DNA of 64,000 nucleotides. Origin: Candidatus Woesearchaeota archaeon (GTDB lineage: Archaea > Nanobdellota > Nanobdellia > Woesearchaeales > SKIA01). Under the pieces are notes generated by a model that did not search any database, was not told the origin of the DNA, and saw only the letters and a list, made by a program, of their open reading frames with translations. Below, in pieces: positions 557 through 50,355 of the stretch. The stretch covers positions 6,191 through 70,190 of the forward strand of contig JBJKRI010000008.1 of the NCBI GenBank assembly GCA_046704725.1, in the 5' to 3' direction. Within the stretch, counting starts at the first letter, position 1. The number at the start of each line of letters is the position of its first letter. The position numbers were made by a program, and so were the translations under genes.

Positions 557-602
557 TTCAGGGTATTCTCGAATGCACAAAGCATATTAGACTGTATCAG
601 GA

Positions 603-2837
603 ATGCGATGCATGCGCATCGTGCCTCTCATGCGCGTATTGGCGGTCGCGCTCGCCGGGAGCGCTCTTGCGGCGCCGATACCCTTCGGGCCGTCCGAACC
701 GCATCCAGGACCGTCGAGCACTATGGTCTTCCACGATAACTTCGAGGAATACAACACCGTCGCGGACATGAAGGTCGCAAACGGCGGGAACTATGTCTTC
801 AACACCGCGGGCTACGACCACATCAGCGTCTGCACCGCATGCGGATACGGCGGAAGCACGACGAGCCGCACAGGAAAAGCGGCCGAGTGGTTCTGGCCGA
901 CATCCACGATAGAGCAGGACGAGATCATGGAAAAAGACAACTTCGCCTTTCCCGCCGCACCGAGCCAGGCTCCCGAATACTTCAGCTTCATGTACAGGAC
1001 ATCGCCGGGATTCGTGTACCACACCGTGAGCCCGCGAGTGGGCAAGAAACACTTCCTCCTCATACGGCCCGGGAGCCTGGGCGCCCGCATCACCAACTAC
1101 GGTTCGGGATGGTCGCTCATGCAGACCAACGGCGTGAAGATCGACCCGAACACCTACCACTTGAGCCTCGCGCCCCAACCTGGAGACCTGAACTTCTCGG
1201 CTTGGGGATTGCAGGTGGGTGATCGCGACGGATTCGAACGCCAAGTGCTCTCGGATGGGAACTGGCACCGATTCACGTACGAGCGAGTCCCAGAGACTGT
1301 GGACGCGGCCATGAACGGGAGCTACCTCGTCTGGATCGACGGGAACCTCGTGGCCAACTACAGCGACCTGGGAGACGGGGCGGGTCCCACCGCCATCGTA
1401 CAGATATTCGGGACCTTCAACGGCGGCTCCTCCCAGGACCAATATGAATGGTTCGACAACTTCTCCGCGTGGTACGGCCCATCGCAGCACGGATCCGGCG
1501 CGTCGACATCCTGCTCGGCGAACGCCGACTGCACGCTGAACATCTCGTGCGGCGGGACAAGCCCATTGCCATTGTGCGGCGCCTCGGACTGCTATTGCGG
1601 GAACGACAGCGACCTCGGCTTCACGCCGCTACCCGCGGACGTGAACCTCGACCACGCAGTCGATGTGCGTGATCTTATCGTGCTCGTGCATGCGCTCGGA
1701 TCCGGGACGTCGCGCGCCGACCTGAACAGGGACGGGAGGGTGGATATCTTCGACCTCGTGAGCGCGGCGCGCTCCCTCGCCTCGGGAGGCTACACGCCCG
1801 GAACGACACCGCCGCAAGCGCCGTCCAACGCGATAGCGACGCTCTCGGGAACGAACGCCTCCGGAGCCACATACGCCTTCTCGTGGGGCTCCGCGGCGGG
1901 CGCCACCGGATACCACGTGACCGCAGGCTACAACGACGGCTCGTGGAGCACGAGTACCGACGTCTCCAGCACATCCACGACGCTGTTCTTCCCCTACCAC
2001 GCCGACAACCAGTCAGCCAACGGATACGCGTGCGTGGCAGCGACCGACAGCGCCGGAACGAGCGGCACGAGCTGCAGCCCGGTGAGCGTACCCGCGCCGC
2101 CCACTAGTTCTGGAGGGAACACCTCGATGCCGCTCCTGTTCTCGGACGGATTCGAGAGCGGGAACCTCAGCGCGTGGGACGACATCTACAACCAAGCACT
2201 GTTCTCGGTGACAACAGCGATAGCGCACAACGGCACGCACGCCCTCAAGGTCGTGTTCCCCGCAGGAACAGCGGGCGGTTCGATGAGCAAGTTCATCCTG
2301 CCAGGATACACGCAGGTGGAAGCGAGCATGTGGGTGTACTATCCCAATAACTTCACGGGCGGATCGAAGCTCATGCTCTTCCATATCTCTAACACGTCGA
2401 GCCCGTGGAGCGCGTTCGGACGGGCGGGGGACTGCCCGAACGGGACCGATTTCGCCCTCTCGAACATCGTGAGCGGAGACATCCCGGGAGGAGGCATGAC
2501 ATTCTACACCTACTACGTTGGCGAGCCGAAAGAGCCGGACAACGTGACCTGCTGGGGAAGGTACGGGACAGGGGTCGCGCAATACTACTCGCCGCGGGAG
2601 ATCTACCGCGGGTCCTGGCACCACATAGAGTTCTACGAGAAACTCAACACGCCCGGCCAGAACAACAGCATACAACGCTTCTGGCTTGACGGCGTCCTCC
2701 AAGGAGAATGGAAGGGGGCGGTCTTCCGGACGATACCCGACCTGCTGAACACCGCCTTCACGATCGAGCTGTCCACGAGTGGAATCACGAGCACGCAGGT
2801 ATTTTACATCGACGATGTGAAGGTCTACGGCAGCTGA
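603..2837 (+). CDS. Secreted protein: jelly-roll domain, Cys-rich linker, dockerin-like domain, FN3/Ig-like domain, C-terminal polysaccharide-lyase-like (PL14-like) jelly roll
   Basis: Signal peptide (RVLAVALAGSALA). Paired EF-hand-like loops ADVNLDHAVDVRDL and ADLNRDGRVDIFDL. C-terminal FSDGFES...WHHIEFYEKLNTPG...FWLDG...FYIDDVKVY pattern. Confidence 0.7.
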   Translation: MRCMRIVPLMRVLAVALAGSALAAPIPFGPSEPHPGPSSTMVFHDNFEEYNTVADMKVANGGNYVFNTAGYDHISVCTACGYGGSTTSRTGKAAEWFWPTSTIEQDEIMEKDNFAFPAAPSQAPEYFSFMYRTSPGFVYHTVSPRVGKKHFLLIRPGSLGARITNYGSGWSLMQTNGVKIDPNTYHLSLAPQPGDLNFSAWGLQVGDRDGFERQVLSDGNWHRFTYERVPETVDAAMNGSYLVWIDGNLVANYSDLGDGAGPTAIVQIFGTFNGGSSQDQYEWFDNFSAWYGPSQHGSGASTSCSANADCTLNISCGGTSPLPLCGASDCYCGNDSDLGFTPLPADVNLDHAVDVRDLIVLVHALGSGTSRADLNRDGRVDIFDLVSAARSLASGGYTPGTTPPQAPSNAIATLSGTNASGATYAFSWGSAAGATGYHVTAGYNDGSWSTSTDVSSTSTTLFFPYHADNQSANGYACVAATDSAGTSGTSCSPVSVPAPPTSSGGNTSMPLLFSDGFESGNLSAWDDIYNQALFSVTTAIAHNGTHALKVVFPAGTAGGSMSKFILPGYTQVEASMWVYYPNNFTGGSKLMLFHISNTSSPWSAFGRAGDCPNGTDFALSNIVSGDIPGGGMTFYTYYVGEPKEPDNVTCWGRYGTGVAQYYSPREIYRGSWHHIEFYEKLNTPGQNNSIQRFWLDGVLQGEWKGAVFRTIPDLLNTAFTIELSTSGITSTQVFYIDDVKVYGS

Positions 2838-2846
2838 GAATAGCTA

Positions 2847-2852
2847 TTTATA
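2847..2852 (+). promoter_or_regulatory. Archaeal TATA box; equivalent boxes at 4980-4985 and 7096-7103 precede the next paralogues
   Basis: TTTATA/TTTTTATT located 22-24 nt upstream of each start codon, consistent with leaderless transcripts. Confidence 0.6.
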
Positions 2853-2873
2853 CTCCTATTCTTGAAGGGCGTC

Positions 2874-4967
2874 ATGCGCGCCGTCATGTGGGGGGTCGTC
2901 ATCATCTTGCTCGCATCGCTCGTCCTCGCGGGTGCGGGGGACGTGAACAATGACGGTGTGGTGAACGTGCAGGACCTGTTGTTTGTCGTGCAGAACATCC
3001 ATGCCGGTTCCTCCTTTAACACGGCCGCTGACGTGAACGGCGACGGTGTGGTGAACATCTTCGACCTCGTAGACGTCGCGCGCGATTTCGGGAAGACGTA
3101 TGGTTCCGTGCCGTTCTTCAGTGATGGTTTCGAGCATTACGCTCCGGGGACTGGTGGCTTGTCCAGCCTCACCACAACGTATGATCCGGCTGGGAGCGGT
3201 TTTTCTTGGGATCCGGGCAACAATAATCCTGGTGGTGTAGCGTCTGTTACGGTGACTGATGCGATCGCGCATTCGGGTAATCATAGTCTTGATTTCTTTT
3301 TTCCAGGCGGGGCGAACGGGTCTGACTCCTCCGCCGAGCAGCGTTTGTCTTTTGGGCGCAACCTCTCTGAGGTCTGGTTGAGCTATTACATCTACTTGCC
3401 TGATGGCACGCATGGACTGTGGAATCGTTTCGTGCACCGGTACGATCCGAACGGTCCGAACAATGACAAGTTCATCGATATTTGGGGCAGCCAGTACAGC
3501 GTGCTGAACGGCGGGGGGATCCTCATGGGCTTCAGTACGAACATGGGCTCGACCGGTGGTTGGATCGAGAGCAGTTGGGGATCTGACAATATCGTGTGCA
3601 CCGGGACCCAGATCGTGGATATCTACCCGAGTTGTGGTACGGGTGCTGGTTGGACTCCGCGTGGTTCGTGGCCGAACGGTTATCTCGGGCGTTGGTTGCA
3701 TGTGCAAGCGCATGTCAAGCTCGCGCATAATGTGACCGCTTCTGACGGCTCGATGTACTTAATCATCGATGGAACGGTGTTCAGCAACCGGACGGGCCTT
3801 GCCATGTCGGGTCGTGCGGGGTATGATTATCTTGCGAATGCGTATCTTTGGGGGTGGGCGAACAGCGGTTTCTCGAATGACACGCATGTCTTCGTGGATG
3901 ATTTCAAGATCTATGATACGAATCCTGGCTGGTTCGCCAGCGACACCACTCCCCCCGTCGTTTCTGGCGGTTATACGACCGGAAAGCTGTCAGCGGGGAT
4001 GACGAGCGCGACGCTCGCTGTCACGACGAACGAGAACGCAACATGCAGATACAGCACGACAGCCAATACCGCGTACGGCAGCATGACGAACACGTTCAGC
4101 ACGACCGGCGGCACGTCGCATTTCACGACGGTCTCCGGTCTGTCCGACGGGCAGAACTATATGTATTACGTCCGTTGCATGGATGTTTCTGGGAACGCTG
4201 ACTCTAGCGACTACGCGGTGAACTTCTTGGTAGCGAATCCGGCGAGCGCGTTGCATCCTCACGAGCCGGCCGGCATGACCGTCATCGGCGATGACAACGG
4301 GAGCGTGGCGCAAGCGAACGGACACGCTTTTGGCATCACCGCTTTCGGCGGCTGGACCGATCCGAGCAATGTCGTCAATTACACTGATCCGACGAATCCT
4401 GTGGGGAGCGGAAAGTCCGTCGAGTTCCATTGGTTATCCTCGATGAGCGGCGCGGCGAAATCGTTCGCATCGTTCACGCCCTACCACCAATTGTACGTCT
4501 CGTTCTGGGTGTACTATGTATACACCGGGACGGAATGGCAGAACGGGCAGAAGTTCTTCTACTTCGGGCTGCTCAACGGAGGAAGGCCCACCTACACGGA
4601 TTTCTACTTGGATCGTCCTGCAAGCTCGATTCCGGAGCCCATCCGCGTCGTCAATCAGAACGGTGGAGCAGTGAACCCGATGATCGATACCGCGTATTCG
4701 CCCCCGCAGGGCACGAATACCAAACCGCTGGTGATGAACCAGTGGATACACGTCGAGCTGCTCGCCACGGACGAGACGAATTCGAGCGCGAACGACGGTT
4801 CAGTCTATATGTGGGTTGATGGCAAACTCGCGGGCTATCTCGACAACGCTGATTGGGGGACCGGCGGCGGAAGCGGATTCGCAGGGATGGAATGGTACGC
4901 GCACGCGAACAGCGTTCCTGTCGACTCCATCTATCGGATTGGGGAGCTGTATATCGCTGGTAAATAG
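2874..4967 (+). CDS. Secreted dockerin + jelly roll (type A) + Ig-like + jelly roll (type B) protein
   Basis: ATG 2874 lies 22 nt after TTTATA (the ORF track starts at TTG 2862). Signal peptide, GDVNNDGVVNVQDL/ADVNGDGVVNIFDL dockerin duplication, YLWGWANSGF motif, and an Ig module shared with the next two genes. Confidence 0.75.
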   Translation: MRAVMWGVVIILLASLVLAGAGDVNNDGVVNVQDLLFVVQNIHAGSSFNTAADVNGDGVVNIFDLVDVARDFGKTYGSVPFFSDGFEHYAPGTGGLSSLTTTYDPAGSGFSWDPGNNNPGGVASVTVTDAIAHSGNHSLDFFFPGGANGSDSSAEQRLSFGRNLSEVWLSYYIYLPDGTHGLWNRFVHRYDPNGPNNDKFIDIWGSQYSVLNGGGILMGFSTNMGSTGGWIESSWGSDNIVCTGTQIVDIYPSCGTGAGWTPRGSWPNGYLGRWLHVQAHVKLAHNVTASDGSMYLIIDGTVFSNRTGLAMSGRAGYDYLANAYLWGWANSGFSNDTHVFVDDFKIYDTNPGWFASDTTPPVVSGGYTTGKLSAGMTSATLAVTTNENATCRYSTTANTAYGSMTNTFSTTGGTSHFTTVSGLSDGQNYMYYVRCMDVSGNADSSDYAVNFLVANPASALHPHEPAGMTVIGDDNGSVAQANGHAFGITAFGGWTDPSNVVNYTDPTNPVGSGKSVEFHWLSSMSGAAKSFASFTPYHQLYVSFWVYYVYTGTEWQNGQKFFYFGLLNGGRPTYTDFYLDRPASSIPEPIRVVNQNGGAVNPMIDTAYSPPQGTNTKPLVMNQWIHVELLATDETNSSANDGSVYMWVDGKLAGYLDNADWGTGGGSGFAGMEWYAHANSVPVDSIYRIGELYIAGK
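3030..3085 (+). repeat. 56-nt perfect direct repeat (second dockerin loop); second copy at 5168..5223
   Basis: Identical gacgtgaacggcgacggtgtggtgaacatcttcgacctcgtagacgtcgcgcgcga in both genes. Confidence 0.9.
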
Positions 4968-5008
4968 TCCTTAGAAACGTTTATATGGTTTGTTTCTAGG
5001 GTGGATTC

Positions 5009-7090
5009 GTGCGTGCTGCAATCGCTTTCGGAACGTTCTGTGCACTATTGCTTTGCGTGTCGATCGTCCTCGCGGGCGCGGGCGATGTGAACGGTGACGG
5101 CGTGGTGAACGTGCAGGACCTCCTGCTCGTGGTGCAGAACATCCACGCAGGAACCATCGGGAACGCCGACGTGAACGGCGACGGTGTGGTGAACATCTTC
5201 GACCTCGTAGACGTCGCGCGCGACTTCGGCAAGACGTACTCCACCCCCTCCTCGGGAGGCGCTCCGTCGTATTCCGACGGTTTCGAGAGCTACGCGCTCA
5301 ACACCACGCTTGACGCTACTTCCGCCACCGGCTTCTCCTGGAACGGCGGTTCCCCGAACGTGGTCGTGTCCGACCAGATCGCTCGCACCGGGAACAAGAG
5401 CCTCGAGTTCCTCTACCATGGCAAGCCTCCTGGCGGGGACGCCACGGCGGAGCAGCGTTTCACGTTCGCGCCCAACGCGTCGACCGCGCCGAGCGAGGTC
5501 TGGATGGAGTGGTACGTGTACTTCCCGAAGAATTTCGTGTATAGGACTGATGGCGTCGCGTTGAACAACAAGCTTTTCAACATTTGGGCCGAGACCTACT
5601 CTGCCTCGCCCAACTTTGATATGGAGTATCAGGGATCCACCAGCAGCATAAGTCCACATGTTAACATCTACACTAGTGGAGGACCGAACTCTGCCAACTT
5701 CCATTTCGATACGTATCAGATCTGGACGAATGATGCCTCTGTGGCGGGCGCGTGGCACCAGATTCGGCTATACATGCGGCTGGGAAATGGCAATACCGAC
5801 CTCGGCGCCATCGACGTCTGGTTCGATGGCAAGTTGGTCGTGCATTTACGCACGAACGAATTACCTTTCTATGATACCGCGCATAACTATTTCCGAAACG
5901 GCTATCTCATGGGATGGGCGAACACCGGCTTCACGAACGACACTGCCTTCTATATTGATGACCTAAAGGTCTACACGAGCGATCCCGGGTGGTTCGCGCC
6001 ACCGAACATCACGAGCAGCTCTCCGTCCGGAACGCTCAATGCAGGAACGACGAACACGACGCTGTCCGTCACGACCAACGAGAACGCGACGTGCAAGTAC
6101 AGCACGACAGCAGGAACCGCGTACAGCAGCATGGCAAGCACGTTCTCCACGACCGGAGGGACCGTGCATTCCACGTCGGTCTCCGGATTGACGGACGGGA
6201 ACAGCTACACGTACTACGTCCGTTGCGAGGACACCTCAGGCAATGCAGATACGAGCGACTATGGGGTGTCCTTCTCCGTCGCTTCCGCCTCCGCTTCGAC
6301 GTCATTGTATTCCGACGGTTTCGAATCCGACGCTGTCGGTTCCACCGTGACGGGGACCGGGAACCAGAACTTCATGTGGCTCGGAGGCGACGTGTCCATC
6401 CACGTATCGAACCTGCTCGCCCATTCCGGCAGCAACAGCCTCCGGCTGGAGTACAATCACTTCAGCACCGACCCGAGCACGTACTCCTCGAACGAGCAGC
6501 GGTTCAACTTCACACCGAGCAAGGAGGTGTGGTTCGAGTACTACATCTACTTCCCGAGCGGGAACGAAGGGCTCGGACTAAACCGGTACGTCCAGCGCGA
6601 CTCTCCGGACGGCATCAACAACAAGCTCTTCACGCTGTGGGCGGATAGCTACAGCGCCGACCCGCTCGTCGTGTACCAGACCTGGTCGAACGGCACGACG
6701 GGAAACAACTTCCTGAACTATGGGGGCACGGAAGCGGACCCGACCCATCCTGCTCTGGTGCTGTATCCGGACACGTCCGGTACCACCATCACGGGAACGT
6801 ACGGCAACCATTACATGTACGTCGGCGACGGCGTCAAGCGCGGGCAGTGGACACAGATGCGTTTCCACCTCAAGGTCGCGGACTACGGGCAGAAGAACGG
6901 TGAGGAGGAAGTGTGGGTGAACGGCAAACAGGTGCTCCAGACGTTGAACCTTCCGCTCTACGACCCGACGAACACCGCCAACTACTTCGCCCACGGGTAT
7001 CTGATGGGATGGGCGAACAGCGGTTTCAACGTGAACACGAGCGTCTTCATCGACGACTTCAAGCTCTATACGTCGAATCCAGGCTGGTAG
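5009..7090 (+). CDS. Secreted dockerin + jelly roll (A) + Ig-like + jelly roll (A) protein
   Basis: GTG start 24 nt after TTTATA. Dockerin duplication. Two copies of the YLMGWAN(T/S)GF...F(Y/I)IDD.K.Y...PGW domain. Confidence 0.75.
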   Translation: MRAAIAFGTFCALLLCVSIVLAGAGDVNGDGVVNVQDLLLVVQNIHAGTIGNADVNGDGVVNIFDLVDVARDFGKTYSTPSSGGAPSYSDGFESYALNTTLDATSATGFSWNGGSPNVVVSDQIARTGNKSLEFLYHGKPPGGDATAEQRFTFAPNASTAPSEVWMEWYVYFPKNFVYRTDGVALNNKLFNIWAETYSASPNFDMEYQGSTSSISPHVNIYTSGGPNSANFHFDTYQIWTNDASVAGAWHQIRLYMRLGNGNTDLGAIDVWFDGKLVVHLRTNELPFYDTAHNYFRNGYLMGWANTGFTNDTAFYIDDLKVYTSDPGWFAPPNITSSSPSGTLNAGTTNTTLSVTTNENATCKYSTTAGTAYSSMASTFSTTGGTVHSTSVSGLTDGNSYTYYVRCEDTSGNADTSDYGVSFSVASASASTSLYSDGFESDAVGSTVTGTGNQNFMWLGGDVSIHVSNLLAHSGSNSLRLEYNHFSTDPSTYSSNEQRFNFTPSKEVWFEYYIYFPSGNEGLGLNRYVQRDSPDGINNKLFTLWADSYSADPLVVYQTWSNGTTGNNFLNYGGTEADPTHPALVLYPDTSGTTITGTYGNHYMYVGDGVKRGQWTQMRFHLKVADYGQKNGEEEVWVNGKQVLQTLNLPLYDPTNTANYFAHGYLMGWANSGFNVNTSVFIDDFKLYTSNPGW
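5066..5151 (+). repeat. 86-nt perfect direct repeat (first dockerin loop); second copy at 7190..7275
   Basis: Base-by-base comparison of gtcctcgcgggc...catccacgcagg in both genes. Confidence 0.9.
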
Positions 7091-7126
7091 ATACGTTTTT
7101 ATTGTGTTTTCCGTAGATGCGTCTCG

Positions 7127-9214
7127 ATGCGTATCCGGTCTGGTCTGGTCGTCGGTGTCTTCCTGAGCGTGCTGCTCGTCTGCTCCGTGGTCCTCGCGGG
7201 CGCGGGCGATGTGAACGGTGACGGCGTGGTGAACGTGCAGGACCTCCTGCTCGTGGTGCAGAACATCCACGCAGGGAGCTCGTTCAATGCCGCGGCTGAC
7301 GTGAACGGTGATGGTGTCGTCAACATCTTCGACCTCGTGGATGTCGCCCGTGATTTCGGTAAAACATATTCCACTGGAAAAGGTTTTGCGGTTATTCCGT
7401 ATTTTTCCGATGGTTTCGAGAACGCAACGGTAGGCAGCCACATTAATGGACGGGGTGCGGACGGTTTCAGATGGGGTTCTTATGATGGCCATTGCGTCGT
7501 GAGCACGGCCATGGCTCATTCAGGCAATAAGTCGTTGTTGATCCAATACCCGGTAGCGGCGGCCGGAAGCGACAGCTTCGCAGAGCAGTACTTCGAGTTG
7601 GCGCCGAACGCTTCGACAGCGCCGAAGGAGGTCTGGATCGAGTGGTACGTCCACTTCCCGTCCAACTATGTATTCCGGTATACTGAGAGTCCCAATAACA
7701 ACAAGCTCTGGGCCATCTGGGCGGAGACGTATTCACACTCGCCGTTCGTGGACCTGGAATACCAGGGCACGTCCAGCAGCGTCAATCCCCTCGTGAACTA
7801 CTACACTGTATATCAAGGGTCGAGCACCAACAGGGGCGGCTCTTTCTTCGACCGGCGCCAGATATGGTCGGTGGATTCCGATGTGGCCGGCGAATGGCAC
7901 CAGATCCGGCTCCATCTGCGCCTCGGTGATGGCGGCGCTACGGACAATGGCGTCGCGGATATGTGGTTCGACGGTAACCGTATAGGCCACCTGCGCGGCA
8001 ATGACTCGCCCTTCTACGACACCACGAACAACTATTTCCGCAACGGCTACATCATGGGATGGGCGAACGCTGGGTTCTCGAATACGACCTCGTTCTACAT
8101 CGACGATTTCAAGGTCTACGCGAGCGATCCCGGGTGGTTCGCGCCACCGAATATCACGATCAGTTCACCCGCTGGGACTCTCAGTGCAGGAACGACGACC
8201 ACGACGCTCTCCGTGACGACGGACAAGAACGCGACATGCAGATACAGCACCACAGCGAACACCTCATATAGCAGCATGGCAAACACATTCTCCACGACCG
8301 GCGGGACGACTCACTCAGCCACCGTCTCCGGACTCGTCGGCGGGCAGTCCTACACGTATTACGTGCGGTGCGTGGACGCTTCTGGGAGTGCAGACACGAG
8401 CGATTACCCGATCATGTTCTCGGTCGCGGCTACGACCGGTCCATCAACGTTCCACGAGCCGGCCGGCATGACGACGATATTCAACATGACGGGGAACACG
8501 AAGGACTGGGACAGCACGGCGTACAACGGCTCCTCCATCATTTTCTACGGCAAGAACTGGGGGAATCCCGCGGAGGGGAGCACGGGCCCGTTCACGGGCA
8601 GGGTGAGCGTCGTGGACGACCCGGCAGCGCCGTACGGCAAAGCGGTACAGGTGTTATTCCCCAACGGAACCGGTGAAGGTTTCTCGGGACTGGCCGTACT
8701 CTCCTTCGGACAGCCGTACCGCAAGATGTATCTTCGCGCCACGTTCGAGTACAATCCCGACTGGCAACAGCACCCCTCGGGAACGACCAAGCTCTTCTAC
8801 TACGGCATCCCCGGCCATCTGAACGCGTTCTACCCGCAGATGCACGGGTCGAGCTGGAACATGCGATGGAGGGACCAGTACTCCGGTGCGAACGCGCTGA
8901 CCGCGGACCCGGACGTTCCGGCGTACTTTCCACCGGGAAGCTACCACACCCTCGAGATCTATCAGGTCGAGTCGCACAGCGGGGCCAGCGACGGCTCGAT
9001 GACGCTCTGGCTGGACGGCAAGAAGATAGATGTCTGGAAGGACCTGGCGATTGGCTCCCTTGTGAACCTCACACAACCCGTGTACAATTTCACCGGAGGA
9101 CAATTGCTGGATGGCGCGCAGCTCGGGACGTACTGGGGTGGTTCAGGAGGCTTCCACAAGACGCAGAACGACTGGATGCGCTGGGGGGACATCTTCATCG
9201 CCGGCTCGAACTGA
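7127..9214 (+). CDS. Secreted dockerin + jelly roll (A) + Ig-like + jelly roll (B) protein
   Basis: ATG about 24 nt after TTTTTATT. Same architecture as 2874..4967, with an HEPAGMT start of the type-B domain. Confidence 0.75.
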   Translation: MRIRSGLVVGVFLSVLLVCSVVLAGAGDVNGDGVVNVQDLLLVVQNIHAGSSFNAAADVNGDGVVNIFDLVDVARDFGKTYSTGKGFAVIPYFSDGFENATVGSHINGRGADGFRWGSYDGHCVVSTAMAHSGNKSLLIQYPVAAAGSDSFAEQYFELAPNASTAPKEVWIEWYVHFPSNYVFRYTESPNNNKLWAIWAETYSHSPFVDLEYQGTSSSVNPLVNYYTVYQGSSTNRGGSFFDRRQIWSVDSDVAGEWHQIRLHLRLGDGGATDNGVADMWFDGNRIGHLRGNDSPFYDTTNNYFRNGYIMGWANAGFSNTTSFYIDDFKVYASDPGWFAPPNITISSPAGTLSAGTTTTTLSVTTDKNATCRYSTTANTSYSSMANTFSTTGGTTHSATVSGLVGGQSYTYYVRCVDASGSADTSDYPIMFSVAATTGPSTFHEPAGMTTIFNMTGNTKDWDSTAYNGSSIIFYGKNWGNPAEGSTGPFTGRVSVVDDPAAPYGKAVQVLFPNGTGEGFSGLAVLSFGQPYRKMYLRATFEYNPDWQQHPSGTTKLFYYGIPGHLNAFYPQMHGSSWNMRWRDQYSGANALTADPDVPAYFPPGSYHTLEIYQVESHSGASDGSMTLWLDGKKIDVWKDLAIGSLVNLTQPVYNFTGGQLLDGAQLGTYWGGSGGFHKTQNDWMRWGDIFIAGSN

Positions 9215-45106: not shown

Positions 45107-45195
45107 GCCTCCGTGGCTCAGTGGTAGAGCAGCTGCCTTGTACGTTCACGCCCAAGGAAAGCAGCAGGTCCCGCGTTCGAATCGCGGCGGGGGCT
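45107..45195 (+). tRNA. tRNA-Thr(UGU) with a 17-nt intron at 37/38 (45143..45159)
   Basis: GCCTCCG/CGGGGGC acceptor stem, GCTC/GAGC D stem, GCTGC/GCAGC anticodon stem, CT-TGT-A^A loop, TTCGAAT T loop, U discriminator, no encoded CCA. TTTATAAG box upstream. Confidence 0.88.
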
Positions 45196-49096: not shown

Positions 49097-50290
49097 ATGG
49101 ATATCAAGGAGAGCGCCGTCAGGCTGCACGAACGCCACCAAGGAAAGCTCGGGACGACGACGCTCGTGCCCCTGAAGACGCGCCGCGACCTGTCGCTCGC
49201 GTACACGCCAGGCGTGGCCGAGCCGTGCCTGCGCATCGCCAAAGACAAGAGCCTCGCCTATGACTATACTCTGAAAGGGCGGACGGTCGCTGTAGTGACG
49301 GACGGAAGCGCAGTCCTCGGCCTGGGGAACATCGGCCCGGAAGCGAGCCTGCCAGTCATGGAAGGCAAGTGCGCGCTCCTCAAGGAATTCGCCGGCGTGG
49401 ACGCCGTGCCCATCGCGCTCTCCACACAGGACCCTGACGCCATCATCGAGACCGTCGAACGCCTCGCGCCGACGTTCGGCGCGATCATCCTCGAGGACAT
49501 CAGCGCGCCGCGCTGCTTCACCATCGAGAAGGAGCTCAAGAAACGCCTGGACATCCCGGTCTTCCACGACGACCAGCACGGCACGGCAATCGTCGTGGCA
49601 GCCGCGCTGCGCAACGCGCTGAAAGTGGTGGGAAAGCGCTTCTCGGACGTACGCATCGTCATCAACGGCGCGGGAGCGGCGGCACAAGCCATCACGCGCA
49701 TCCTCTGCGGAGGAGTCTGCCCGAACGTCATCCTCGTTGACCGCACCGGAGCCATCTACAATGGAAGGGAGAAGCTCGATGAGCACAAGCGAGCCATCGC
49801 GAGAAAGACGAACCCCGAACGACGCAAAGGAAAGCTGTCGGACGTCATCGAAGACGCCGACGTCTTCATCGGCGTATCCGCGCCCAACGTGCTCACGAAA
49901 GAGATGGTGGAGCGCATGGCGGACAACCCCATCGTCTTCGCGCTCGCAAACCCCGACCCCGAGATCGATCCCGCCCAGGCCGCGGCCGCCGGGGCGGCGG
50001 TCATCGCGACAGGACGGAGTGACCACCCGAACCAGATCAACAATGTATTGGCATTCCCGGGAATCATGCGCGGTGCATTGCAGGTGCGCGCGACATCCAT
50101 CACCGAAGGCATGAAGCAGGCGGCGGTGGACGCGATCGCATCGCTCGTGGAGCCCACGACTGATCGCATCGTGCCAGACCCGTTCGACGCCCGCGTCGCG
50201 CCAGCCGTGGCCAAAGCCGTGGCGAAGGCCGCGAAAGAAGACGGTGTGGACCGGGCCCGGGGGGATTCGAACCCCCGACCTACAGCTTAG
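49097..50290 (+). CDS. NAD(P)-dependent malic enzyme (short form)
   Basis: LSLAYTPGVAEPC, VTDGSAVLGLGNIGPEASLPVMEGK, FHDDQHGTA, INGAGAA, FALANPDPEI, NQINNVLAFPG. Confidence 0.95.
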   Translation: MDIKESAVRLHERHQGKLGTTTLVPLKTRRDLSLAYTPGVAEPCLRIAKDKSLAYDYTLKGRTVAVVTDGSAVLGLGNIGPEASLPVMEGKCALLKEFAGVDAVPIALSTQDPDAIIETVERLAPTFGAIILEDISAPRCFTIEKELKKRLDIPVFHDDQHGTAIVVAAALRNALKVVGKRFSDVRIVINGAGAAAQAITRILCGGVCPNVILVDRTGAIYNGREKLDEHKRAIARKTNPERRKGKLSDVIEDADVFIGVSAPNVLTKEMVERMADNPIVFALANPDPEIDPAQAAAAGAAVIATGRSDHPNQINNVLAFPGIMRGALQVRATSITEGMKQAAVDAIASLVEPTTDRIVPDPFDARVAPAVAKAVAKAAKEDGVDRARGDSNPRPTA

Positions 50291-50355
50291 GAGGCTTTAG
50301 CGGAGAAGCCTGCTATCGGTTCCCTGTCGCTCCATCCAGACTGAGCTACGGGCCC
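50252..50355 (-). tRNA. tRNA-Arg(CCU) with a 29-nt non-canonical intron at 28/29 (50297..50325)
   Basis: GGGCCCG/CGGGCCC acceptor stem, GCTC/GAGC D stem. Removing AGGGAACCGATAGCAGGCTTCTCCGCTAA restores ACAGC-CT-CCT-AA-GCTGT. Central helix AGCG/CGCT flanked by 3-nt bulges AC^A and AA^A. Confidence 0.9.

Follow-up and report, generated by a model that had tools for sequence, protein, structure and literature searches.

Tandem genes for dockerin-bearing, lyase-like jelly-roll proteins and two single-cohesin membrane proteins in a woesearchaeal genome

Introduction

Dockerins and cohesins are the plug and the socket of the bacterial cellulosome, for example in Acetivibrio thermocellus and Pseudobacteroides cellulosolvens, where many dockerins compete for few cohesins. 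Non-cellulosomal cohesins and dockerins are established in archaea as well, namely in Archaeoglobus fulgidus, in the survey of Peer et al. (2009), and in many copies in anaerobic methanotrophic archaea (ANME) (PMC9012536). The archaeal systems combine type-I-like dockerins, which have two Ca loops, with single-cohesin proteins and have no large scaffoldin; their cargo is unrelated to cellulose, and a role in building the cell surface or in cell-cell contact is presumed (PMC9012536). Here we analyze a tandem array of four genes (g1-g4, positions 603-9214) that encode proteins with a dockerin and two jelly-roll domains each. The array lies in a 64,000-nucleotide (nt) stretch of DNA, in the following called the window, from a Candidatus Woesearchaeota archaeon, a member of the DPANN (Diapherotrites, Parvarchaeota, Aenigmarchaeota, Nanoarchaeota and Nanohaloarchaeota) archaea. 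Coordinates are positions in the window unless a contig is named; the contig of the window is called C8, and the genome contigs C2-C8 are labeled likewise.

The jelly rolls of the array fall into the neighborhood of several polysaccharide lyase (PL) families. Pfam family PF14099 (Polysacc_lyase) is built around heparinase I (PL13) and the glucuronan lyase TrGL (PL20; 2zzj). In PL36, to which the alginate lyase Aly36B belongs, the catalytic center consists of Lys143, Arg169, Tyr185 and Tyr187 (PMC8286568), and PL14 includes vAL-1 of a Chlorella virus and AkAly30 of Aplysia. The same fold neighborhood contains Cip1 of Hypocrea jecorina and X122 of Teredinibacter turnerae, both of which gave negative results when assayed for lyase, hydrolase and binding activity (PMC3764139, PMC10916295). 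A survey of carbohydrate-active enzymes in DPANN archaea reported few PLs and none of the present type (PMC8091004). Our full-text literature searches, which combined dockerin or cohesin with DPANN or Woesearchaeota, returned incidental mentions only, and no such DPANN system was described in them. The pairing of non-cellulosomal cohesins and dockerins in archaea is already known; the double PF14099-type cargo and the dockerin at the very N-terminus are what distinguishes the present case.

Results and discussion

Dockerin modules of the array

The genome comprises 1.18 Mb in 8 contigs, is 99.7% complete and has a GC content of 60%. In a comparison of elongation factor 2 (EF-2), its closest named relatives were Candidatus Woesearchaeota metagenome-assembled genomes (MAGs) with 82-85% identity, which identifies it as a small-genome DPANN archaeon, where a preliminary description of the window had assumed a probable symbiont. 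The four open reading frames (ORFs) match that description exactly. All are on the forward strand and separated by gaps of 24-41 nt: g1 (603..2837) encodes 744 amino acids (aa), g2 (2862..4967) 701 aa, g3 (5009..7090) 693 aa and g4 (7127..9214) 695 aa. Behind a predicted signal peptide, g1 carries a first jelly roll (N'), a Cys-rich linker, an internal dockerin, an Fn3-like domain and a divergent second jelly roll (C'). In g2-g4, the dockerin comes directly after the signal peptide and is followed by a jelly roll of type A, an Ig-like spacer and a second jelly roll, which is of type B in g2 and g4 and of type A in g3. This unit of g2-g4 recurs at the DNA level every 2.05-2.15 kb, with the dockerin and spacer segments conserved best. 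The N-termini of g1-g4 show a short basic stretch and then a hydrophobic run, which in g2-g4 ends in VLAGAG just before the first Ca loop; we read these segments as probable Sec signal peptides, with the cleavage judged by eye.

All four proteins matched the Pfam profile Dockerin_1 (PF00404; 57 positions) above its gathering cut-off of 22.9 bits, with profile positions 1-2 to 49-52 covered. The scores were 24.2 bits for g1 (1629..1793), 40.2 bits for g2 (2931..3104), 35.0 bits for g3 (5075..5242) and 42.4 bits for g4 (7199..7372). Each module contains two 12-residue Ca loops of the pattern D-x-N/D-x-D-x-x-x-D/N-x-x-D, spaced 27-30 residues apart (in g1, DVNLDHAVDVRD and DLNRDGRVDIFD), and the best matches of g3 among PDB sequences were solved cellulosomal dockerins (2y3n_B, E 1.7e-7). 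Judged by their sequences, the modules are true duplicated F-hand dockerins, so that the duplicated Ca-binding motif reported earlier for each gene stands and isolated EF-hands are ruled out.

Across the genome, 11 proteins carry a dockerin, with both Ca loops intact in every one. Apart from g1-g4 and two proteins encoded just upstream of the window (see below), these have A-, N'- or C'-type jelly rolls, in one case next to an F5/8 type C domain; a protein of 131 aa consists of a dockerin only. The Pfam domains found across all 11 were restricted to PF14099/PL14-like, Beta_helix, F5/8-type C and Ig-like domains; cellulases, hemicellulases and carbohydrate-binding modules (CBMs) were absent from this cargo in the Pfam search. 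Five of the dockerins are located at the extreme N-terminus, right after the predicted signal peptide, which distinguishes them from the archaeal non-cellulosomal modules described before. These five share 85-95% identity at the protein and 77-87% at the DNA level, and the jelly rolls adjacent to them share 24-57% protein identity. That the dockerins are far more alike than the adjoining jelly rolls suggests that they are under selection to bind a single common partner. Recent gene conversion was considered as the source of this similarity and rejected: because the DNA identity of the dockerins is lower than their protein identity, purifying selection fits better. One homologue is labeled at NCBI as 'dockerin type I domain-containing protein [Candidatus Woesearchaeota archaeon]'.

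Cohesin partners and their co-occurrence with dockerins

The window contains no cohesin, as the preliminary description had stated, and the genome search proposed there was successful. A six-frame search of the genome with the cohesin profile PF00963 (cut-off 24.1 bits) revealed two genes above the cut-off, at C6:117142-119646 (48.7 bits) and C3:144407-144958 (36.9 bits), both of which encode single-cohesin proteins with membrane anchor segments. A protein of 183 aa consists of an N-terminal hydrophobic anchor, a Ser/Thr-rich linker and the cohesin. In the other, of 834 aa, an N-terminal hydrophobic segment and the cohesin are followed by four Big_7 Ig domains, a Gly/Thr-rich linker and one more domain; a short tail behind a C-terminal transmembrane helix ends the protein. 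Both match solved cohesins (3l8q, 2y3n_A, 1tyj). Other PF00963 matches in the genome remained below the cut-off, including one in an archaellin-like ORF, and a homologue search with the 183-aa protein retrieved only this protein itself.

With the bacterial cellulosome, the system shares the plug-and-socket pair, the competition of many dockerins for few cohesins, and cellulosomal structures as the best PDB matches, namely 2y3n_B for the dockerin and 2y3n_A and 3l8q for the long cohesin protein. In contrast to the cellulosome, the genome search found single-cohesin anchors only and no multi-cohesin scaffoldin, CBM3 or glycoside hydrolase (GH) cellulases are present, and the anchors are transmembrane segments instead of SLH domains or sortase links. 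The term 'cellulosome-like' used in the preliminary description does hence not apply in its strict sense. The traits of the archaeal non-cellulosomal systems named above, as known from A. fulgidus and ANME, recur here; what differs is the 1.18-Mb DPANN genome and a cargo that consists almost exclusively of double PF14099-type jelly rolls, whereas the common cargo in ANME is substrate-binding proteins. Not a cellulosome, but a minimal non-cellulosomal cohesin-dockerin surface display with predicted docking, is the best-supported description of the system.

Among 41 related genomes, cohesins were detected in 7 and dockerins in 12. For the five species of the genus, the numbers of cohesins and dockerins were 2 and 11 in the genome analyzed here (G000), 2 and 9 in G003, 2 and 4 in G004, 0 and 0 in G001, and 0 and 1 in G002. 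According to a search with a cohesin profile built from the genus, G000, G003 and G004 each have exactly two cohesin genes, of which one is short and the other long, whereas G001 and G002 have none. A 13-kb contig of G003 carries a cohesin gene with a dockerin gene on either side. A cohesin gene adjoins the EF-2 gene in G003 and G004, a synteny that is not found in the present genome. The contigs of G003 and G004 that were examined have a GC content of 46-49%, compared with 60% here.

Family and fold of the jelly-roll domains

A BLAST comparison of the single domain pieces with all ORFs of the genome yielded a distinct pair of jelly rolls in g1, A+B in g2, A+A in g3 and A+B in g4, which bears out the two jelly rolls per gene and their combinations as described before. 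In g1, N' (717..1487; residues 39-295) has its sole paralogue on contig C2 (C2_10113, BLAST E 2.6e-21) and scores 19.4 bits with PF14099, below the gathering threshold of this family (29.9 bits); C' (2103..2834), which contains an LNTPG motif, is an A-family homologue without most of the conserved polar residues. The A domain of g2 (3102..3947) is canonical in that EQR, R101, NDK, Y119, Y221 and N227 are kept, and the B domain of this protein (4218..4964) starts with HPHEPAGMT. In g3, the first A domain (5243..6013) reaches 45.9 bits with PF14099 over profile positions 18-209 of 210, and the second (6305..7087), which is 66% identical to a paralogue on C3, matches PL14 (PF21294) with 33 bits at a cut-off of 27. 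The A domain of g4 (7391..8161) obtains 45.5 bits with PF14099, shows 57% identity to the first A domain of g3 and is accompanied by a B domain (8435..9211). Taken as whole proteins, g3 (61.9 bits in two stretches) and g4 (45.5 bits) exceed the PF14099 threshold. This near-full-length match relates them to heparinase I and TrGL, from which they differ by an identity of only 12-14% and by the presence of two such domains plus a dockerin in one protein.

The domain types are related to each other. Comparison with hhalign aligned B to A with 97.4% probability (E 1e-11, 208 columns) and g1 C' to A with 99.4% probability (E 4.9e-22); the match of g1 N' to A was weak (87%) and limited to the last 72 residues of N'. 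By these profile comparisons, A, B and g1 C' are mutually homologous members of the PF14099 superfamily. To collect the A family, the first A domain of g3 alone was used in an exhaustive HMMER search, as a search with full-length g3 was dominated by the Ig-like spacer. It contains 957 clusters at 50% identity with E<=1e-3, and 516 with E<=1e-10; 36 of the 49 members of the A-family alignment match PF14099. A single-sequence PDB search with g3 retrieved dockerins only and no match for the jelly rolls, and the A-family profile retrieved the PL20 glucuronan lyase 2zzj (E 0.004) and Cip1. NCBI's name for one bacterial homologue is 'heparin lyase I family protein'.

AlphaFold2 (AF2) models of A (first A domain of g3) and B (g4) are both beta-sandwiches, with a predicted local distance difference test score (pLDDT) of 88 and a predicted template modeling score (pTM) of 0.88 for A, and with moderate confidence for B (pLDDT 75, pTM 0.81). 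The top Foldseek matches of the A model were the PL36 alginate lyase Aly36B, X122, the PL14 enzymes vAL-1 and AkAly30, and Cip1; for the B model they were PL36, Cip1, X122, PL20 (2zzj) and PL14. For the PL36 and PL14 enzymes, E values ranged from 2e-10 to 3e-7 and template modeling (TM) scores from 0.5 to 0.66; generic lectins ranked lower for A. Together with the Pfam matches to PF14099 and PL14, this supports the polysaccharide-lyase-like character proposed for the jelly rolls in the preliminary description. The models are equally close to the lyases of PL36, PL14 and PL20 and to the activity-negative Cip1 and X122. A viral fold library yielded nothing specific: its matches were limited to PL14-like proteins of chloroviruses and ConA-like tail proteins of phages.

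All 10 PF14099 matches of the genome are located in dockerin proteins or their array neighbor. A-type domains were matched 11, 5 and 1 times in three species of the genus and not at all in 36 other genera of the order, which marks this domain, on the basis of these searches, as a genus-specific expansion. Outside the genus, the nearest homologues likewise combine a dockerin with PF14099 and are encoded on a MAG contig that looks archaeal.

Conserved residues and possible catalysis

In the alignment of 49 A sequences, F14, W33, G50, P95, R101, K110, Y119, W171, W193, Y221, G224, N227 and D239 are near-invariant, and an E-Q-R motif is well kept. The A copies of g2, g3 and g4 retain the polar set of the family except for R72Y in g4, and this set is mostly lost in g1 C' and in one paralogue on C3 (C3a). 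The N-terminal 'SDGFES' motif and Asp239 of the A family match the structural Ca site of Cip1 and TrGL, and the Ca 'grip' residues (DxFE ... D239) are kept as in these two proteins (PMC3764139). With Cip1 and X122, the A family further has in common the fold neighborhood, the N-terminal Ca-site motif ('SDDFESG'), a conserved Arg-centered patch on the presumed concave face, and the joining to other modules in secreted proteins, which in Cip1 and X122 are CBMs or redox modules and not dockerins. Aly36B, vAL-1 and AkAly30 are its best Foldseek matches and share a conserved Lys on a central strand, whereas the Pfam match to PL14 covers only generic 'W...DG' strands, and PL14 and PL36 sequences fall outside the E-value limit of the A-family profile. 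Taking sequences and models together, the jelly rolls are lyase-like, and some of them may be lyases. A search of the genome for GH88 and GH105, which act on unsaturated uronates, returned no match, which is weak negative evidence.

Promoters and start codons

TATA-like boxes were identified upstream of all four genes: ATATTA (584..589) 28 nt before ATG 612 of g1, TATTTATA (2845..2852) 27 nt before ATG 2874 of g2, TTTATA (4980..4985) 29 nt before GTG 5009 of g3, and TTTTTATT (7096..7103) 29-31 nt before ATG 7127 of g4. In g1 and g2, the true starts are probably these ATG codons, which follow the first possible start by a few codons. Genome-wide, TATA-like hexamers form a sharp peak between -31 and -27 relative to the start codon (734 long ORFs), which is the signature of leaderless archaeal transcripts. 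As the boxes of g1-g4 are found at this genome-typical distance, each gene probably has its own promoter. The preliminary description had claimed such a box for at least three of the genes; the present data extend this to all four, at 27-31 nt before plausible starts.

A possible surface coat and its alternatives

From the domain identities, the folds, the co-occurring partners and the promoters described above, we infer the following account of export, docking, catalysis, substrate and biological role. The g1-g4 proteins would be exported via Sec and held on the archaeon's own surface by Ca-dependent binding of their dockerins to one of the two membrane-anchored single-cohesin proteins, i.e., the 183-aa protein with its N-terminal transmembrane anchor or the 834-aa protein, which would present a distal cohesin on an Ig-domain stalk above a C-terminal transmembrane helix. 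The cargo displayed in this way would be two jelly rolls of the PF14099 (heparinase I/glucuronan lyase) superfamily with an Ig-like spacer between them, which would recognize a polysaccharide, most likely one that contains uronic acids. Canonical A copies, in which Glu-Gln-Arg, Arg, Asn-Asn-Lys and Tyr are kept, would probably cleave this polymer by beta-elimination, and the divergent copies (g1 C', perhaps B) may serve as binding or specificity modules. Since each gene probably has its own promoter, a varying mix of the 11 dockerin proteins could be loaded on the two kinds of anchor. The result would be a swappable coat that binds and opens glycans, on a DPANN cell without an unsaturated-uronate hydrolase. 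As GH88 and GH105 for unsaturated uronates were not found, the coat would more likely be used to attach to or breach the envelope or biofilm matrix of a partner than for feeding. We lean towards this surface-tethered coat of glycan lyases and binding modules as the whole explanation, while leaving ample room for error.

Several observations weigh against it. The two single cohesins have to serve 11 dockerins, and in this genome no cohesin gene adjoins a dockerin gene. The hydrophobic segment at the N-terminus of the array proteins could be an uncleaved anchor and not a signal peptide. Taken alone, g1 (19.4 bits) and g2 (16.2 bits) remain below the PF14099 cut-off and also below that of PL14, and the structural matches are at the level of the fold only (TM 0.5-0.66, 9-18% identity), with the activity-negative Cip1 and X122 among the same top Foldseek matches. 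Except for the Lys on the central strand, the Lys...Arg...Tyr-x-Tyr constellation of PL36 and PL14 is unrecognizable in the A alignment; the Arg and Tyr-x-Tyr (PMC8286568) are not evident in the B alignment either, and the strands expected to bear them are variable in the A family, as judged from the alignment.

Alternatively, the same cohesin-dockerin tether would display jelly rolls that are non-catalytic, lectin-type adhesins, which bind a glycan or protein on the partner's surface and cut nothing, an explanation that we regard as possible, if doubtful. It would agree with the negative assays of the structural neighbors Cip1 and X122 (PMC3764139, PMC10916295), with further Foldseek matches to legume lectins, sialidase CBMs and the lectin domains of staphylococcal Aap/SasG, with the loss of the conserved polar set in g1 C' and C3a, with the giant adhesin-like protein encoded by the neighboring 6978-aa gene, and with the lack of GH88/105 for downstream uronate processing in the genome search. 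However, the charged and aromatic set that canonical A copies keep over ~50 distant homologues (E-Q-R, R, N-N-K, Y) resembles an active site more than a lectin site, the Pfam family is the one built around heparinase I and glucuronan lyase, and the same array encodes a beta-helix protein of the pectate-lyase fold. A further and unlikely reading treats the array as the kit with which a DPANN episymbiont opens its host's envelope: dockerin-clipped lyases would attack acidic envelope polymers, such as the glucuronate-containing methanochondroitin of Methanosarcina-type hosts, or the dockerins would plug into host cohesins, and the pairing would mediate contact between species and not the assembly of an enzyme complex.

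Other explanations concern the tether itself. That the array proteins are freely secreted enzymes, with the dockerin-like module as a Ca stabilizer or vestige and the cohesin proteins serving something else, is in our view very improbable: no part of the paralogues is conserved better than the dockerin (85-95% protein identity), it co-occurs with cohesins at the level of the genus, and a vestige would not retain both Ca loops in all 11 copies. In its favor, some relatives (G015 and G040) have dockerins and no cohesin, and non-cellulosomal dockerins without known partners are common (Peer et al. 2009, as cited in PMC9012536 and PMC10066038). Least probable of all, we think, is that the dockerins plug into foreign cohesins and not into those of the archaeon itself, for example into the cohesins of a methanogen or ANME-type host with many of its own, so that the array would encode host-docking effectors. 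The excess of 11 dockerins over two self cohesins could be explained in this way, as could the presence of both cohesin and dockerin above cut-off in the control genome of Methanosarcina acetivorans and the many cohesin and dockerin proteins of ANME archaea that are thought to function in cell-cell interaction (PMC9012536). Within the genus, however, cohesins and dockerins are present or absent together, and the cohesin gene of G003 is flanked by dockerin genes. Moreover, cohesin-dockerin pairs are usually species-specific, as known from cellulosomes.

Linkers, spacers and genomic surroundings

Between the first jelly roll and the dockerin of g1, a linker of 45 residues (1488-1622) contains eight cysteines; at the equivalent position, a paralogue on C6 shows a weak Dickkopf_N-like match. 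The Ig/Fn3-like spacer of g2 (3948..4217; NENATCRYST...YYVRC) has sub-threshold matches to Pur_ac_phosph_N and DUF7800 and is 65-71% identical to its paralogues, and corresponding spacers were located by Pfam and BLAST in g3 (6014..6304) and g4 (8162..8434). Modules with 50-70% identity to this ~90-aa spacer occur in hundreds of secreted proteins that are unrelated apart from it, from candidate phyla radiation (CPR) bacteria, DPANN archaea and other MAGs, and the cohesin proteins of the congeners carry the Ig-like spacer of the dockerin proteins too. By sequence comparison it looks like a widely shuffled module.

The array comprises more than four genes and extends further upstream than the preliminary description had noted, as two additional dockerin genes are situated on the same contig just upstream of the window. 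One of them encodes a contig-edge protein with a dockerin and a B domain, and the other a 905-aa protein with a right-handed beta-helix (pectate-lyase fold), a dockerin and a B domain. The same upstream region contains two overlapping ORFs (C8 1049-1558 and 1548-3335) that resemble one frameshift-split gene, the one with a signal peptide and a beta-helix cap and the other with two jelly-roll-like domains, neither with a dockerin; this pair may represent a pseudogene or result from an error in the assembly. C5 breaks off (~273100-273578) within a gene for a protein with signal peptide and A domain, and C8 begins (3-968) within one that encodes a dockerin and a B domain, so that C5 and C8 may be neighbors at which the assembly was broken by repeated modules.

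Just before g1 (29-556), the window has a small gene whose product combines a charged, helical N-terminus with a single transmembrane helix and a beta-rich outer part of ~95 residues. This protein was considered as a hidden cohesin and rejected, as it has no Pfam match and was missed by the genome-wide cohesin searches. With the giant adhesin-like gene downstream of the array, the whole region looks like a surface-interaction island. Elsewhere in the window, Rfam identified two tRNA genes of 89 and 104 nt (45107-45195 on the forward and 50252-50355 on the reverse strand) that were missed by ARAGORN and probably carry introns. The nearest EF-2 relatives of the genome are the MAGs CSBr16_197 and CSSed162cmB_258, whose names suggest brine and sediment; an alkaline habitat, if so, would favor beta-elimination chemistry.

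Significance

For the question of how DPANN archaea recognize, hold and open their partners, the genome offers a small, testable set of surface components, with two sockets, two or three dockerin sequence types and three jelly-roll types. The 11 dockerin proteins and two cohesin anchors account for ~2% of the 1.18-Mb genome, and almost all of the cargo consists of lyase-like jelly rolls. The A family also defines a large uncharacterized branch of the PF14099 superfamily, with its 957 clusters and a clear set of conserved residues. If the jelly rolls are indeed active lyases tethered by cohesin-dockerin pairs, the use of this plug-and-socket principle would extend to ultra-small archaea and to the attack on acidic glycans.

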